From NCBI GenBank assembly GCA_000999095.1, contig LCFP01000003.1, positions 26,839 through 90,838 of the forward strand: DNA of 64,000 nucleotides, read 5' to 3'. Below are positions 38,361-53,665 of the stretch, in pieces (the stretch's first letter is position 1; each line of letters begins with the position of its first letter). Under the pieces are notes generated by a model that was not told the DNA's origin, ran no database searches, and saw nothing but the letters and a program-made list of their open reading frames with translations. The position numbers and the translations under genes are program-made. Origin of the DNA: Candidatus Gottesmanbacteria bacterium GW2011_GWA2_43_14. GTDB taxonomy: Bacteria; Patescibacteriota; Microgenomatia; 2-02-FULL-39-11.

Positions 38361-38506
38361 CCCCCCTCGGTAGTCCGTTCAACTTAAGTTTATTAATTTA
38401 AAGCAGTTTCCGCAACCCTTTTCTTACCCAGGTCTTACCGACCGAAGAACCTCTGTTTACAGGTGACGGATATATTGTTTCCAGATTAAGAGGAGGTGAG
38501 TTTTTT

Positions 38507-38716
38507 ATGGCAACGGTAATTAACAATCCTGGTGAAAACAACAATTCATGGGGATATTCGGTCGGCGTGGTTCTATTGTTAGCCGTTGTTTTAATTTTTG
38601 TCATTTACGGCCTGCCTATCCTTAGACAATCTCAAATCGAACAGGCACCGCAAATCAATGTACCGGGTGAAATAGATGTCAATATCAATGAAGGACAGGG
38701 TGGCGGAGGTAATTAA
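38507..38716 (+). CDS. small single-TM protein, paralogue of 40921..41142
   Basis: Strong SD AAGAGGAGGTGAG; TM then Q-rich tail ending GQGGGGN; similar to the other copy (…GLPILRQSQIEQ… vs …GLPLIEQTGQLN…). Confidence 0.6.
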   Translation: MATVINNPGENNNSWGYSVGVVLLLAVVLIFVIYGLPILRQSQIEQAPQINVPGEIDVNINEGQGGGGN

Positions 38717-38751
38717 CATCTGACATATCGAAAGGGGGTGATGACCCAATC

Positions 38752-39006
38752 ATGAATATTTTATTATGGATTCTGTTCGGAGCATTAGCCGGCTGGATAG
38801 CTTCTCTGGTTATGAAGAATGATGCCAGTCAGGACATCCTTATGGATATCGTCATGGGTATTGCCGGTGCCTTGGTCGGCGGTTTCCTGATGCAATTGTT
38901 CGGCGTCCCCGGAGTCACCGGATTTAACCTGTACAGTTTATTGGTTGCCGTTGTCGGAGCCAGTATCCTGATTTATTTGGGAAGATTGTTGAGAAGAAGT
39001 GCATAA
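38752..39006 (+). CDS. GlsB/YeaQ/YmgE-family stress-response membrane protein (transglycosylase-associated protein)
   Basis: 84 aa; WILFGALAGWIAS…GIAGALVGG signature. Confidence 0.8.
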   Translation: MNILLWILFGALAGWIASLVMKNDASQDILMDIVMGIAGALVGGFLMQLFGVPGVTGFNLYSLLVAVVGASILIYLGRLLRRSA

Positions 39007-39078
39007 GTTATTAATTTTTTTACATACTCTGGGAGCCCCCAAAATATATAAGAGGCGGGCTCCCGGAAAACTGCTCTT

Positions 39079-39582
39079 ATGAATTTTAGATATATAACTT
39101 TATTTATTTTTATTGCCATGGTCGCCCTGTTATTTATGCCTGCCGAAAGTCTGGCCAATGAATGCGGTTTAATGAGCGAGTCCAGCTGTCTTATCAGAGA
39201 TAATACCCTCCACCGTTTTTCCCCGGAGGGTGTTATTGCCGATGATATGCAATTTAATTCCGGGGATGAAAAGATAAATTCCGAAAGTTCCGGCTTTGCG
39301 GAGCTGACCACTTTAAAGCCTGATTTTTCCGTTAAACAAATCTTTTCACCAGATGGCCAAATAATACAAACAACCAGCGTCGGACCTGCAGAGGATACGG
39401 AGCGGGCAAGTTATAGCGGTAAATCGCTCACCGTCACCGTCATTTCCGGCGGCAAGAAAAAAACTATACATGCTTATATGGCGGGAGGAATAATTAAAAC
39501 TTCATCTGATGCGGATGAATTTGAAGAATTGGATATATCATTTACAACGTCCACCAATGTCATCAATATCATCGGTCATTGA
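39079..39582 (+). CDS. secreted hypothetical protein
   Basis: Signal peptide …MVALLFMPAESLA; no motif. Confidence 0.5.
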   Translation: MNFRYITLFIFIAMVALLFMPAESLANECGLMSESSCLIRDNTLHRFSPEGVIADDMQFNSGDEKINSESSGFAELTTLKPDFSVKQIFSPDGQIIQTTSVGPAEDTERASYSGKSLTVTVISGGKKKTIHAYMAGGIIKTSSDADEFEELDISFTTSTNVINIIGH

Positions 39583-39597
39583 GAAGGGAAAATACAG

Positions 39598-39849
39598 ATG
39601 ATAGCTGCCATAGATTTTTTTTATATTGCCATAGGTTTCGGTTTTCTCATCGCTTCTGTCAGTCTAGCCGTGACGCTGGTCGCTTTAACAAGAACAGTCA
39701 TGGTTGCTAAAAAAATTATTGAGGATGTGGAGGATACAACCCGCGATATCAAACTGTTGAAAAGCGGACTTAAAGTCGGATTATTGTCAATGGCAACAAA
39801 AGTAATCGGTTATTTCGCTAATAAAAAGAGTCAAAATGAAAGGGGGTGA
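39598..39849 (+). CDS. small membrane protein, DUF948-like
   Basis: N-terminal TM then coiled-coil; classic neighbour of YtxH-like genes. Confidence 0.45.
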   Translation: MIAAIDFFYIAIGFGFLIASVSLAVTLVALTRTVMVAKKIIEDVEDTTRDIKLLKSGLKVGLLSMATKVIGYFANKKSQNERG

Positions 39850-40136
39850 ACAAAAGATATATGAACACAAATAATGTTAATAAAAATAATTCGGGAGGCA
39901 GTAAAATGCTGATTTCGGCAGCTTTAGGTGCTGCCTTCGGTGCGGCTGCGGTTGTACTGTCGGACAGAAAAAAGAGGGAAAAAATCAAAAAAGCCGTCGA
40001 CGAAATCATTACCAAAGGCAATCAGCAGATAGACAGGATCAGGGAAACCGCGGAAATCGCCACAGACAAGGGGCGGAAAATTCTTAACGACGAACTTGAC
40101 AAGCAGAAACATCTGATCAGCAAGAAATCAGAGTAA
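39846..40136 (+). CDS. YtxH-like general stress protein
   Basis: TM (MLISAALGAAFGAAAVVL) followed by amphipathic Lys/Glu helix; 4-bp overlap with upstream gene. Confidence 0.5.
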   Translation: MNKRYMNTNNVNKNNSGGSKMLISAALGAAFGAAAVVLSDRKKREKIKKAVDEIITKGNQQIDRIRETAEIATDKGRKILNDELDKQKHLISKKSE

Positions 40137-40216
40137 GGAAATTTTACGGCAGAAACCCGAAATAAAAAACAAACATCTTATTGTTTTTTTACTTCCTTCA
40201 ATGTCTAAATTAACCT

Positions 40217-40669
40217 TTGTTTGTTATGCTTCGGGCTATGTCAAAAAATTCCTTTCTTATTTTGACCGTGGGCTTGGCTGCATTGATACTTGTTATCGGT
40301 GCAACCGGTTTAAAGCGGGAGACTGACCTTAATAATTATGCGGTCGGCGGAGGCCCCCCTGAAGTAATTGAAAGTCCGACTCAAACAACAACGACAAGTG
40401 CAGTTATAGTGGTGTATTTAACTGCCGGTTATGAGCCGGTTATAGTTACTATCAGAAAGGGAGAAACCGTCAGTTGGATAAACAGGTCTGAAGAAATGAT
40501 GCAGGTGGCTTCAGATCCTCACCCCACCCATGACTTTTACCCGGGATTTGACCAGTTATACGGTGTCGGACAAGGCCAGACGTATACTTTTACTTTTGAT
40601 AAACCCGGAATTTGGAATTACTATAATCATTTAAATCCGGCACATGCAGGCAGGATTGTCGTTATCTGA
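40217..40669 (+). CDS. membrane-anchored cupredoxin-like domain protein
   Basis: …VIVTIRKGETVSWINRSEEMMQVASDPHPTHDFYPGF… plastocyanin-like beta-sandwich pattern; no Cys copper ligand seen. Confidence 0.4.
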   Translation: MFVMLRAMSKNSFLILTVGLAALILVIGATGLKRETDLNNYAVGGGPPEVIESPTQTTTTSAVIVVYLTAGYEPVIVTIRKGETVSWINRSEEMMQVASDPHPTHDFYPGFDQLYGVGQGQTYTFTFDKPGIWNYYNHLNPAHAGRIVVI

Positions 40670-40808
40670 AAATCAGCTTAATTTCTTACACAGCTCTTAC
40701 CGGTCCGGCCGATTAATCTTAAACCCCTCCCATAAACTCTCATTTGTTGAAGATGCTGTTACAGGAATTTTCCATAACATACTCATCTTCTCTAAATAAA
40801 CTTTAAAC

Positions 40809-40849
40809 GCTTTCGAATAGCCAATTTGACTATCGAAAGCGTTTTTTTA
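40809..40849 (+). terminator. rho-independent terminator
   Basis: GCTTTCGaATAG-loop-CTATCGAAAGC stem followed by GTTTTTTTAT. Confidence 0.6.
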
Positions 40850-40920
40850 TATAACATTTCTTACCGCTATCTTATCAGCCTGAAGAGTTTTTTTAATGCC
40901 CCCAAGTTAGAATATGGGGT

Positions 40921-41142
40921 ATGGTAAATAAATACCCCCAGGCAGCTGAAAAGGAAGAAAATATAGGTTTCCTCTCGGGAATAATGATTTTGATTGTAGC
41001 CGTTTTCCTGTTTTTGTATTTCGGTTTGCCCCTGATTGAACAAACAGGACAGTTAAATACGATGTTAAATGAAGAGCAGGGGGTGGGCGGAAATTTTTAT
41101 GTGCCTGAAGAATTTGCGGTCCATGAAAATAGTCTTAAATAG
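40921..41142 (+). CDS. small single-TM protein, paralogue of 38507..38716
   Basis: TM then Q/E-rich tail with GVGGN; preceded by TCTTACC direct repeat. Confidence 0.5.
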   Translation: MVNKYPQAAEKEENIGFLSGIMILIVAVFLFLYFGLPLIEQTGQLNTMLNEEQGVGGNFYVPEEFAVHENSLK

Positions 41143-41233
41143 TGAGTTGGGTAAATCTTCTTACCGTAAATTTACATAATTCTCACGTTCTACTTACGGG
41201 ATTTAAATACCCTCAATTTATCCTTTTATTTGC

Positions 41234-43786
41234 ATGATACCGGGAAAAGTGGCTATGATTTCTCCAGCTCACCTTGACTTAGTCATAAACAGTATTGCAG
41301 AAGGTATTACCGTTCAGGATATGCGAGGAAACTTAATTTACGTAAATGAGGCAGCTGCCAGATTGACTGGTTTTAAGAGTGCAAAAGAGTTGCTTTCAAC
41401 ACCGCGCGAAAAAATCCTGGAAAAGTATGAATTGCTGGATGAAGCCAGGCGGCTTATACGCGCAGGCCGTTTGCCGGGAAGAATGGTAATCAGTTCGGGA
41501 AAACCCCAGGAGGAAGTCATTCAGTTTCGGATACTCGCAACCGGCGAAAAACGGTGGTCGACCGTTAAATCCAGACCGGTTAACGATAAACAAAAAAAAC
41601 TGAAGGTCATCGTAAATGTTTTCAGGGATATTACCCGTGAAAAAGTTACCCAAGACCAATTGATACATAAGATCAGACAGCAGGAATCAGTTTCCCTATT
41701 GGGGCAAAAATCGCTGGAAGGTGCATCAAGCAGTAAAATCATGCAGTTTGCCCTGGAAATTCTCTCCCTGCGGCTGCCTATTGAATACTCGAAAATCGCT
41801 CGGATGGATGACGACGGTAAAAGCCTGCTAATAATCTACGGAAAAGGCTGGAGGAAAGGGAATATAGGGACAGTTCGCGAGGCAAGCGACATATATTCTC
41901 CGGCAGGATATACCCTGAAATCGAGGAAACCGGTGATCATGAATAACTTGGCTGAGGAAAAAAGGTTTAAAATTCCGGCTTTTCTCAAAGATCACGGGAT
42001 AAACAGCGGAATGAGTGTCATAATTCATGGTGAGCAGAAACCCTTCGGAGTTCTCGGAGTCTATTCCAATTCAGCAGTCAAATTCAACCGCGATGACATT
42101 TATTTCCTGTCCCAGGTCTCAAATATAATCGCGGAAAGCATAGAGGGGGAAAAGAAAGTAGAAGAGATAAAATTCCAGACAAAACTAATAAATGCTGTTG
42201 AAGAGGCAGTAATTGCAACTGATCCGGATGGGAAAGTAATTTTTTGGAATGACTATGCTTCAAAACTATACGGCTGGAAAATGTCGGAAATGAAAGGTAA
42301 AAATTTAATGAAAATAATTCCCGATTGGGAGAAAAATAAAACAAAATTTGCCATGGCCGCCGTTAGAAAATCCGACAGCTGGTCCGGAGAAATGCAACTT
42401 CTCAATAAAAACGGCAAAGTCTTCACTGCCTCGGTTTCTGATTATCCGGTCATGGGAAATAACGGAAAACTTATTGGTATGGTGGGTGTTTCCCGAAATA
42501 TTTCAATAGAAAAACGGCAGGAAATAAGTCTGCTGTTTTTGGAAAGGGCCACTGCCATGATGGGTTCATCATTGGAATACGAGAAAACATTAGCGGAAGT
42601 TTGCCGCCTCGCCGTTTCTGAATTTTGCGAGTGGTGTGTAGTTGATTTATGGGAAGACGGTAAATTAAGACAACTCTCGGTCAGCCATTTCCGGAAATCG
42701 ATGGTTGATAAAGCCCTGATTTTTCAAAAACAATACCCACCGAACTTAAATAAAACTGAAGGCAGGCTGATAATTGCCCGAAGCGGAAAACGCATATTCA
42801 TACCTGAAATTAATAAGTTGATGTTAAAGAAATATGCCATGTCTGCCGAACAGCTGAAGCAGTTGGAATCTTTTAATTTTAACTCTTACATAGGAATTCC
42901 GATCAAATACCAGGAAAAAACATTAGGCGTCCTAAGTTTTATCAACACCGGGGGAAACAGAATTTTTTCAAGGGCGGATTTATCAATAGCCCAAAATGTA
43001 GCTAACCGGGCCGGTGTAGCCATCGAAAACGCCAGATTGTACAACCTGGCGCAGGAAAAGATAAGTGAAAAGGAAGAGATAGAAAAAAGAAAGGATGAAT
43101 TTATATCCATTGCTTCTCATGAGTTGAAAACACCTTTAACTTCAATCAAAGCCTTCACCCAAATTCTGTTAAAGAGCGTGTCTGACGACGAAATCAAACA
43201 TAAGAAATATCTCACAAGAATGGACCAGCAGCTGGACAAGCTGACAGAACTCATAAATGATCTTCTGGATGTTTCCAGAATTAAATCAGGAGTGTTGGAG
43301 CTTCGGGAGGAAATTTTTCCCCTGGATATATTTGTCAGGGAAGTCGTAGAGGATGTGGCCAGCATTGTACCCAATAATGACATAGTCGTTGTCGGCAGGA
43401 CAGGCAGGCTGATCAAATCGGATAAAAATAGAATCAGCCAGGTGCTCACAAATCTATTAACCAATGCCGGTAAGTATTCTCCAAACGGCCGCGAAATCCT
43501 GGTCAGGCTTGATTATTCCGACAAGGAGGTCACTATTCATGTGGAAGATTTCGGGATAGGTATTGCTAAAAACAAAATAAATAAAATATTCCAAAGGTTT
43601 ACCAGGATCAACAATCCGAAAAATGAAAAATCTCCCGGTTTAGGATTGGGCCTTTACATATCATCCCAAATCATCAACCGGCTGGGAGGGGAACTCCGTG
43701 TTAAAAGTGAACCAGGAAAAGGTTCCGTTTTCAGTTTCAACCTGCCTACTCTTAAAGAAAAGCAACTGTTATTATCATATAATTAA
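41234..43786 (+). CDS. cytoplasmic multi-domain sensor histidine kinase (PAS-GAF-PAS-GAF-HisKA-HATPase)
   Basis: No TM; H-box ISIASHELKTPLTSIKAF; HATPase G1/G2 (GLGLGLYISSQII…GGEL). Confidence 0.8.
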   Translation: MIPGKVAMISPAHLDLVINSIAEGITVQDMRGNLIYVNEAAARLTGFKSAKELLSTPREKILEKYELLDEARRLIRAGRLPGRMVISSGKPQEEVIQFRILATGEKRWSTVKSRPVNDKQKKLKVIVNVFRDITREKVTQDQLIHKIRQQESVSLLGQKSLEGASSSKIMQFALEILSLRLPIEYSKIARMDDDGKSLLIIYGKGWRKGNIGTVREASDIYSPAGYTLKSRKPVIMNNLAEEKRFKIPAFLKDHGINSGMSVIIHGEQKPFGVLGVYSNSAVKFNRDDIYFLSQVSNIIAESIEGEKKVEEIKFQTKLINAVEEAVIATDPDGKVIFWNDYASKLYGWKMSEMKGKNLMKIIPDWEKNKTKFAMAAVRKSDSWSGEMQLLNKNGKVFTASVSDYPVMGNNGKLIGMVGVSRNISIEKRQEISLLFLERATAMMGSSLEYEKTLAEVCRLAVSEFCEWCVVDLWEDGKLRQLSVSHFRKSMVDKALIFQKQYPPNLNKTEGRLIIARSGKRIFIPEINKLMLKKYAMSAEQLKQLESFNFNSYIGIPIKYQEKTLGVLSFINTGGNRIFSRADLSIAQNVANRAGVAIENARLYNLAQEKISEKEEIEKRKDEFISIASHELKTPLTSIKAFTQILLKSVSDDEIKHKKYLTRMDQQLDKLTELINDLLDVSRIKSGVLELREEIFPLDIFVREVVEDVASIVPNNDIVVVGRTGRLIKSDKNRISQVLTNLLTNAGKYSPNGREILVRLDYSDKEVTIHVEDFGIGIAKNKINKIFQRFTRINNPKNEKSPGLGLGLYISSQIINRLGGELRVKSEPGKGSVFSFNLPTLKEKQLLLSYN

Positions 43787-44186: not shown

Positions 44187-44367
44187 GACTGCTGCGAAAA
44201 AAGGGATGACTACAGTCACTACGCTGATAAAAATTTTGTTAAGCATATTTGCTTATCTTGCCATAAACGCATAAACCGGACTTCAGAAGTTCTGTAATAA
44301 AATAATAATAAATTTTTTCTTACAAATCTCTTACCCTCAAACTTATATATTTTATTAAAAATACCTC

Positions 44368-49066: not shown

Positions 49067-49738
49067 TTATTCTTTGATGACGTAACCGAATCCGCGAACG
49101 GTATTAATAAGAAGCTTTTTGGAGTTTTGATCGATTTTTTTCCTTAAATAACCGATGTAGACATCAACTACCCGGGGCTCAATATAGTCAGCCGTCAGCC
49201 AGATGCGTTGAAGAATCATGTCCCTTGTCAGTACCCGTCCGGCATTAATCATCAGATACTGCAGGAGCTCATATTCCTTATGGGAAAGGCTTATTATCCG
49301 GTCACCCCTTTTTACCTCAAAGGTTTTGGTATTAAGCTCCAGGTCTGCAACTTTGAGGGATGTGCCGTTATGCTCCAAGTGGCGCAGCCTGGCTTTTATC
49401 CGGGCGATGAGCTCTTCGCCTTTGAAAGGTTTGGTAATGTAATCATCAGCACCCAGATTTAATCCTTTAACGATATCGGTCACATCATCTTTGGCAGTGA
49501 GAATGATAACCGGGAGGTCGGGAAACTTTTTTCTGATTTCCGTCATGACTGATTCACCGCTTAATTTGGGCAAACCCAAGTCCAGGATGACCAGGTCCGG
49601 CCGGCGGCTTTCCACCAGATCCAGAGCTTTTACACCGTCCGGTGCTTCTACTACTGAATAGCCTATATCAAGGAGTAAAGTGTTGATGTATTTGCGGATG
49701 TCATTGTCGTCTTCAATAACCATTACCGTTTTGATCAT
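49067..49738 (-). CDS. OmpR/PhoB-family response regulator (receiver + winged-helix)
   Basis: VMVIEDD…DLVILDLGLPKLSG…; C-terminal wHTH …RVLTRDMILQRIW…VDVYIGYLRKKI. Confidence 0.85.
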   Translation of the reverse strand: MIKTVMVIEDDNDIRKYINTLLLDIGYSVVEAPDGVKALDLVESRRPDLVILDLGLPKLSGESVMTEIRKKFPDLPVIILTAKDDVTDIVKGLNLGADDYITKPFKGEELIARIKARLRHLEHNGTSLKVADLELNTKTFEVKRGDRIISLSHKEYELLQYLMINAGRVLTRDMILQRIWLTADYIEPRVVDVYIGYLRKKIDQNSKKLLINTVRGFGYVIKE

Positions 49739-53420: not shown

Positions 53421-53665
53421 TCACTTCGTTGCGTCAATTGTTTTTTACTTAAATCTCATAATCTATCCGGTAGCTTATTACATCCAGAGTATAACATCTG
53501 TTAGCCCATTTTTTTTCCGTTCCTACGCCAGAAATTAACAGTAATTACTCTTTCTTCTTACTGTCATCTTACATTTTTCTGCCTGGTGTCTAATTTCCTG
53601 AAATTAGTATTTTCATTCCTAATAAAAAATTCAAACATAAGGAGAAAGGAGGTGAAAAAAAACAA

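Follow-up and report, generated by a model that had tools for sequence, protein, structure and literature searches.

Between a cupredoxin-like gene and the gene of a small membrane protein, the genome of an uncultivated groundwater CPR bacterium, Candidatus Gottesmanbacteria, holds a short stretch in which the gene callers placed no gene. A preliminary description had read this stretch as an independent short transcription unit, built from a promoter-like repeat, a −10-like hexamer, a 17-codon open reading frame (ORF) and a strong rho-independent terminator. Is there such a unit, and if there is, does it make an RNA or a peptide? We addressed this question in the whole stretch of DNA that was analysed, 64,000 nucleotides long (the window), whose positions are used throughout. 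The features of the locus are the following:

40238..40669, plus strand: cupredoxin-like gene (KKS98139.1, annotated start 40226), with its own repeat (40176-40192) and −10 hexamer TATGCT
40684..40700, plus strand: predicted operator, exact copy of TCTTAC-N5-TCTTAC in 11-bp phase, at about −62 to −46
40733..40738, plus strand: −10 hexamer TAAACT, after a 32-nt gap from the repeat
40746..40848, plus strand: predicted transcript of ~100 nt, ending in the T-run
40749..40790, plus strand: predicted 5′ hairpin around AUG 40753, with an outer stem (GAAGAUG/CAUCUUC) and further inner stems, Watson-Crick pairs throughout
40753..40806, plus strand: 17-codon ORF, MLLQEFSITYSSSLNKL, without a Shine-Dalgarno (SD) sequence; 19-20 codons if begun at the in-frame TTG 40747 or 40744
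40781..40793, plus strand: CU-rich, anti-SD-like segment ACUCAUCUUCUCU, central to the pairing predicted for the 38507 mRNA
40805..40848, plus strand: intrinsic terminator, a 12-bp perfect stem with apical pairs, then T7 (40842-40848)
40921-41142, plus strand: gene of a 73-aa membrane protein, apparently leaderless, with its own operator and −10 past the terminator

The repeat at 40684 is the direct repeat TCTTAC-ACAGC-TCTTAC. TCTTAC-N5-TCTTAC is strongly over-represented in the 64-kb window, where four exact copies (38422, 40684, 44318 and 53556), all on the plus strand, compare with 0.01 expected, and 18 sites with up to two mismatches compare with 4.4 expected. A position scan of the 18 sites found TAnnnT exactly 32 nt past the repeat in six of them, at a background TAnnnT frequency of 0.0175, and no enrichment at any other offset. 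Among the good operator copies the hexamer stands at 32 nt in 6 of 7, on the plus strand throughout, and the composite pattern repeat-N32-TAnnnT has seven matches in the window against 0.22 expected, every one of them on the plus strand. The sites with this geometry are:

38422..38476, plus strand: exact repeat, 32-nt gap, −10 hexamer TATATT; promoter of the 38507-40136 cluster
40176-40192, plus strand: repeat ahead of the cupredoxin-like gene, −10 hexamer TATGCT (40225-40230)
40684-40738, plus strand: exact repeat, 32-nt gap, −10 hexamer TAAACT
40859..40913, plus strand: TCTTAC-N5-TCTTAT (40859-40875), 32-nt gap, −10 hexamer TAGAAT; promoter of the 73-aa gene
41159-41213, plus strand: −10 hexamer TACCCT
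53556-53610, plus strand: exact repeat, −10 hexamer TAGTAT

The word promoter-like in the preliminary description was thus well chosen, since the repeat recurs at a fixed spacing to a −10 hexamer ahead of five other transcription units; these five copies all stand upstream of genes. The spacers that link repeat and hexamer show no mutual resemblance, so the sites represent a common architecture and not a duplicated segment. The operator lies at about −62 to −46, with its centre near −53, and no −35 element is recognisable. OmpR/PhoB-type operators are recognised by direct repeats that recur every 10-11 bp or so, are over-represented and keep a fixed distance to a −10 downstream, and the repeats here show these properties. 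Two of the sites extend into longer arrays in the 11-bp phase: four half-sites at 41159-41197 (TCTTAC/ATTTAC/TCTCAC/ACTTAC) and three at 53556-53583 (TCTTAC/TCTTAC/TCTGCC). The phase and the arrays of three to four half-sites fit a winged-helix regulator. The exact copy at 44318-44334 is followed by a conventional TTGACA-18-TATATT promoter and a gene cluster for GH18, D,D-carboxypeptidase and PBP1A. We predict that the repeat is an operator for an activator, namely a response regulator, rather than a core promoter element, in a layout of the OmpR/PhoB type.

This layout is shared with known promoters of the family, such as the pho box, the OmpR C3/F3 sites, the WalR motif TGTWAH-N5-TGTWAH and the direct repeats of PhoP in Mycobacterium tuberculosis. 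As in those promoters, hexamer repeats with an 11-bp period occupy about −62 to −46, the −35 is weak or absent, the −10 is recognisable, and tandem half-site arrays occur at some sites. Unlike them, the predicted operator uses a TCTTAC half-site and a strict 32-nt gap that appear specific to this genome.

The candidate binder of the repeat is most plausibly encoded within the window itself:

49067..49738, minus strand: OmpR/PhoB-family response regulator, Pfam Response_reg and Trans_reg_C (receiver and winged-helix)

The nearest solved relatives of this protein are M. tuberculosis PhoP, DrrD and MtrA; M. tuberculosis PhoP reads direct repeats phased by 11 bp. Its gene ends a minus-strand cluster, presumably an operon, of a substrate-binding protein, a dCache kinase, a receiver and the regulator, and the exact operator at 53556 lies within the divergent promoter region of that presumed operon. 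Our assignment draws on this operator copy and on proximity. As the 53556-53583 array sits in the divergent region beside the regulator's own gene cluster, it also suggests that the OmpR/PhoB-type regulator is autoregulated through the array.

The operator copies precede the following genes. A cluster of small proteins at 38507-40136, a presumed operon, encodes a 69-aa membrane protein, a Transgly_assoc protein, a 167-aa protein and DUF948-like and YtxH-like proteins. Further copies precede the cupredoxin-like gene, the 73-aa membrane-protein gene, a PAS/GAF histidine kinase with a receiver-only partner, and ORF 53666. One operator appears to define a compact regulon with six promoters of equal geometry, two of them apparently giving leaderless mRNAs. 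The 69-aa (38507-38716) and 73-aa (40921-41142) proteins, both single-pass, are paralogous, with 30% identity (E = 3e-10) and a GLPxxxQ motif in both; neither belongs to a Pfam family, and each stands behind an operator promoter.

In two of these genes, the cupredoxin-like gene (40238) and the 73-aa gene (40921), an ATG follows exactly 8 nt past the end of the −10 without any SD, and their mRNAs look leaderless. The annotated start of the cupredoxin-like gene, 40226, falls within the predicted −10 hexamer TATGCT, which makes 40238 (MSKNSF...) the likelier one; the gene probably starts there and we suggest that the annotation be corrected. Around a dozen genes in the window carry TAnnnT 7-9 nt ahead of the ATG, a leaderless signature. 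A 7-bp inverted repeat, GGGGTAT/ATACCCC (40916-40938), flanks the ATG of the 73-aa gene, and it could sequester this start codon in transcripts begun further upstream, for example by read-through.

The spacing in the two leaderless neighbours also gives an estimate of where transcription would begin at the 40684 promoter. The preliminary description had placed a −10-like TAAACT at 40733, and it is present at 40733-40738; counting 8 nt from its end, as for the ATGs at 40238 and 40921, we infer a start at about 40746. The RNA from there to 40848 folds at −29.1 kcal/mol (z = −5.9) into a predicted order of 5′ hairpin, single-stranded A/U-rich linker and terminator hairpin. The 5′ hairpin (40749-40790) has a folding energy of −11.8 kcal/mol (z = −3.0) and was equalled in stability by 2 of 200 shuffles. 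The minus strand of the same stretch folds more stably, at −36.4 kcal/mol (z = −8.0).

The terminator is as strong as had been claimed: its arms (40805-40816 and 40833-40844) are 12 nt long and 100% complementary, the hairpin folds at −16.9 kcal/mol (z = −5.1), and the U-tract encoded by T7 (40842-40848) comes directly after this stable, G+C-containing stem, as in intrinsic terminators generally. A generic terminator scan, which permits loops of 3-8 nt, missed it because the perfect arms are 16 nt apart. A second repeat pair, TCTTAC-CGCTA-TCTTAT (40859-40875), and the next ORF (40921) come after it, again as described. In the sequence and its folds no other hairpin with a U-tract was found from the cupredoxin stop codon (40669) to 40805, and the cupredoxin-like mRNA must therefore also end at 40805-40848. 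The short unit is thereby embedded in the 3′ UTR of the cupredoxin-like gene, and its operator begins 15 nt past that gene's stop codon. Small RNAs (sRNAs) of 3′ UTRs that have their own promoter are laid out in this way, with the promoter where the upstream gene ends and one terminator serving both. The notion of an independent unit consequently stands in part: the promoter architecture is its own and the span is ~100 nt, but the terminator is common to the unit and the cupredoxin-like gene. The outcome that had been named as a refutation, read-through of the cupredoxin-like transcript to a stop at this hairpin, is almost certainly true as well. Given a promoter-associated repeat and a real terminator, a transcription unit of ~100 nt is the natural reading; as the upstream gene needs the terminator anyway, it is the promoter alone that argues for a separate product.

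We give a probability of about 45% to the reading that this product is a response-regulator-driven RNA of ~100 nt, embedded in the cupredoxin 3′ UTR and acting as a riboregulator within its regulon. The active regulator, most plausibly the OmpR/PhoB-type protein of 49067-49738, would turn on the 40684 promoter. Transcription would begin near 40746 and end at the terminator at 40805-40848 that also closes the cupredoxin mRNA, and the discrete product would consist of the 5′ hairpin, the A/U-rich single-stranded linker and the terminator hairpin. Such an RNA may act by base pairing inside its own regulon. In the likeliest mechanism it would mask the translation start of the 38507 mRNA, both SD and AUG; 38507 is the lead gene of the cluster of small membrane and stress proteins, and the outcome would be a negative (incoherent feed-forward) loop.

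The proposed target comes from the complementarity between the RNA body and the 5′ end of the 38507 mRNA, which amounts to 34 bp in five collinear helices with an energy of −32.8 kcal/mol:

38485..38524, plus strand: predicted target site, which takes in the 5′ UTR, the SD AGAGGAGGUGAGU (38489-38501), AUG 38507 and six codons at the start of the 69-aa gene
sRNA 40781-40793 (ACUCAUCUUCUCU) with mRNA 38489-38501 (AGAGGAGGUGAGU): 13 bp including 2 G-U, covering the SD
sRNA 40772-40777 (CCAUAA) with mRNA 38505-38510 (UUAUGG): 6 bp, covering the start codon
sRNA 40754-40760 with mRNA 38512-38518: 7 bp
sRNA 40746-40750 with mRNA 38520-38524: 5 bp
sRNA 40795-40797 with mRNA 38485-38487: 3 bp

The predicted duplex starts at the predicted first nucleotide of each RNA. 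Among the 69 translation-initiation regions, 38507 is the best for the RNA body, 12 kcal/mol ahead, and the site takes rank 1 among ~16,000 windows on both strands; two sites in coding regions, 7993 and 47729, pair within 1.5 kcal/mol of it. The significance tests disagree. The 38507 target is favoured by composition-matched shuffling, in which none of 200 dinucleotide shuffles attained its pairing energy, and by the gap between the best and the second-best region, which was this large in 2 of 400 pseudo-sRNAs (random genomic 63-mers). On the other side, −33 kcal/mol on some initiation region was reached by 118 of 400 (30%) random genomic 63-mers, which are G+C-richer. With the cost of opening the 5′ hairpin included, the ddG for 38507 is −17.3 kcal/mol and that for the next-best initiation region −8.9 kcal/mol; in this cofold test 24 of 120 shuffled bodies equalled the 38507 value on some initiation region, which is not significant, the initiation region of 38507 being sticky in itself. 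We regard the 38507 mRNA as a possible but doubtful target of the short RNA.

Several other explanations would account for parts of the same evidence. The stretch may be an ordinary cupredoxin 3′ UTR without any product of its own, its hairpin serving as the terminator of that gene and shielding the leaderless 73-aa gene from read-through transcription. In that case the repeat would be either a distal or auxiliary regulator site, which might serve the promoter at 40859, 175 bp further on, or a relic promoter whose gene has been lost, and TAAACT would be a coincidence. We consider this somewhat unlikely, yet deserving of real weight. It agrees with the need of the upstream transcript to end at the hairpin, with the empty region left by the gene callers and with the Rfam result at 40740-40849 (see below); extra upstream sites are common at OmpR-family promoters, and TAnnnT would occur at one fixed offset by chance in ~2% of sites (0.0175). 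It sits less easily with a 40684 site that has the complete promoter architecture of exact repeat, exact 32-nt gap and TAnnnT, with a distance of 175 bp that does not correspond to an integral number of turns of the helix, and with a body hairpin, between start and terminator, more stable than 198 of 200 shuffles. If the unit is transcribed, its product might instead be a micro-protein, or the RNA might have both functions. The ORF reported earlier is there, with ATG 40753, stop codon 40804-40806 and the peptide MLLQEFSITYSSSLNKL, and it has no purine-rich SD upstream; it or its TTG-extended forms is the sole ORF, with the sole AUG, on the predicted transcript. It spans nearly the entire body and its stop adjoins the terminator, its regulon neighbours are apparently leaderless, and the remaining products of the regulon are small proteins. 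The missing SD, listed as a feature in the preliminary description, is real but carries little weight, as an SD-like tetramer precedes only 22 of the 69 predicted genes of the window and 47 of 69 are without one. Against translation, AUG 40753 lies 15 nt past the end of the −10, compared with 8 nt in the two leaderless neighbours, which gives a leader of ~7 nt, and in the fold it is base-paired in the outer stem of the 5′ hairpin of −11.8 kcal/mol. Buried in a stem and 7 nt from the predicted 5′ end, it suits neither SD-led nor leaderless initiation. The forms of 19-20 aa begun at TTG 40747 or 40744, near the predicted 5′ end, fare little better, TTG being a poor leaderless start codon, and the 17-aa peptide is neither hydrophobic nor Cys-rich and is very short for homology detection. 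For the short unit a non-coding RNA of ~100 nt is therefore more likely than a translated peptide, and we hold a micro-protein gene or dual-function RNA to be quite improbable.

With a promoter followed by a short ORF (three Ser codons in a row), a terminator and then further genes, the locus also resembles a classical leader-peptide attenuator, in which a conditional terminator would govern read-through from the 40684 promoter into the 73-aa and kinase genes. No antiterminator pairing appeared in the MFE or centroid folds, though, the downstream genes are not for amino-acid biosynthesis, and the 73-aa gene has an operator and −10 of its own past the terminator, which is not the arrangement of an attenuator. 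Moreover, a read-through transcript would translate the 73-aa gene poorly, because its ATG has no SD and is in a leaderless position. Attenuation is accordingly a very improbable account of the locus. Equally hard to credit is a functional element on the minus strand, either an antisense transcript or a small minus-strand ORF. The more stable fold of that strand and an SD-plus-ATG-like context on the reverse complement speak for it, but every operator copy is oriented along the plus strand, the uninterrupted T7 is found on the plus strand alone, the minus strand has no promoter-like site at coordinates above the element, and the nearest minus-strand gene at higher coordinates that could run in is ~8 kb away.

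Searches for relatives of the proposed riboregulator gave little. The whole window had no match to Rfam at the gathering thresholds, and at E <= 10 three chance-level matches fell within 40100-41300, none of them over 40740-40849. No paralog of the RNA body was found in the window and 10 kb more of the contig (74 kb). Apart from its own, the closest UppP has 59% identity and lies in an unrelated neighbourhood without synteny, and the cupredoxin-like protein has two distant homologs, neither of them syntenic. The histidine kinase (KKS98141.1) had no ortholog besides itself, and a scan of genome contigs with it gave generic kinase-domain matches alone. The same locus is present in two contigs of this organism, L022 and L031, with L031 matching the window without a difference over 40560-41070. 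A third contig, L032 (ENA NODE_431478, 592 bp), was considered as a strain variant and rejected: it matches the window to ~40636 and then diverges abruptly, and it is probably chimeric, with low coverage.

A metagenome pattern scan for two operators 143-173 nt apart gave 95 matches, with 80 loci listed, among which the window's own locus was absent. All the matches inspected were TCTTAC-type microsatellites and were discarded as operator relatives; 0 of 181 had TAnnnT at the promoter offset. Most of the loci were satellite or microsatellite sequences of termite-gut and marine origin, unrelated to the operator. A literature search on small RNAs and leaderless mRNAs in CPR bacteria gave nothing specific.

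The proposed RNA can be compared with two groups of known regulators. MicL, within cutC, and DapZ, at the end of dapB, are 'type I' 3′ UTR sRNAs of enterobacteria with their own promoters. The locus resembles them in that a predicted promoter dependent on a stress regulator stands where a protein gene ends, and in using the intrinsic terminator of that gene; its predicted RNA also falls in the same length class of roughly 80-300 nt and would likewise have a seed region ahead of the terminator hairpin. It differs from them in that the promoter lies just past the stop codon, whereas theirs lie inside the coding sequence, in its predicted dependence on a two-component response regulator in place of sigma-E or HilD, and in its CPR host; there is no sequence or Rfam relationship. 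The second group comprises sRNAs activated by response regulators: Mcr7 (PhoP, M. tuberculosis), MgrR (PhoP), OmrA/OmrB (OmpR) and CpxQ (Cpx regulon, cpxP 3′ UTR). As in this group, an OmpR/PhoB-family regulator bound to direct repeats would activate both an sRNA and envelope-related genes, and the sRNA would block a translation-initiation region and so produce a feed-forward or feedback loop. Unlike in this group, both the regulator-operator link and the target are predicted here, and the sequence and target are unrelated to theirs. CpxQ is released by processing, whereas the unit described here has its own predicted promoter.

Post-transcriptional regulation in the CPR (Patescibacteria) is almost unexplored, since the organisms are uncultivated and their intergenic regions diverge fast. 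The locus offers a candidate sRNA inside a regulon together with a specific predicted target. It would be the first base-pairing sRNA under two-component control to be described in the CPR, with the same regulator driving both the cluster and the RNA as an incoherent feed-forward brake; we think it unlikely that the full circuit exists in this form. If it does, the entire RNA body, from its first nucleotide, zips onto the first 40 nt of the lead mRNA, with SD, AUG and 6 codons, and the brake is built into a minimal genome in which few genes have an SD and many mRNAs are leaderless. Confirmation of the RNA would mean that feed-forward circuits joining a regulator and an sRNA, of the kind seen in enterobacteria and mycobacteria, are also at work in reduced CPR genomes. 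Failing that, the locus still stands as a clear case of a family of activator-dependent promoters in a CPR bacterium. Elsewhere in the window, an ORF resembling the large subunit of [NiFe]-hydrogenase (PF00374, 60190-61479) adjoins HypC-like, VKOR and DsbA-like genes, according to the gene table for a related contig.
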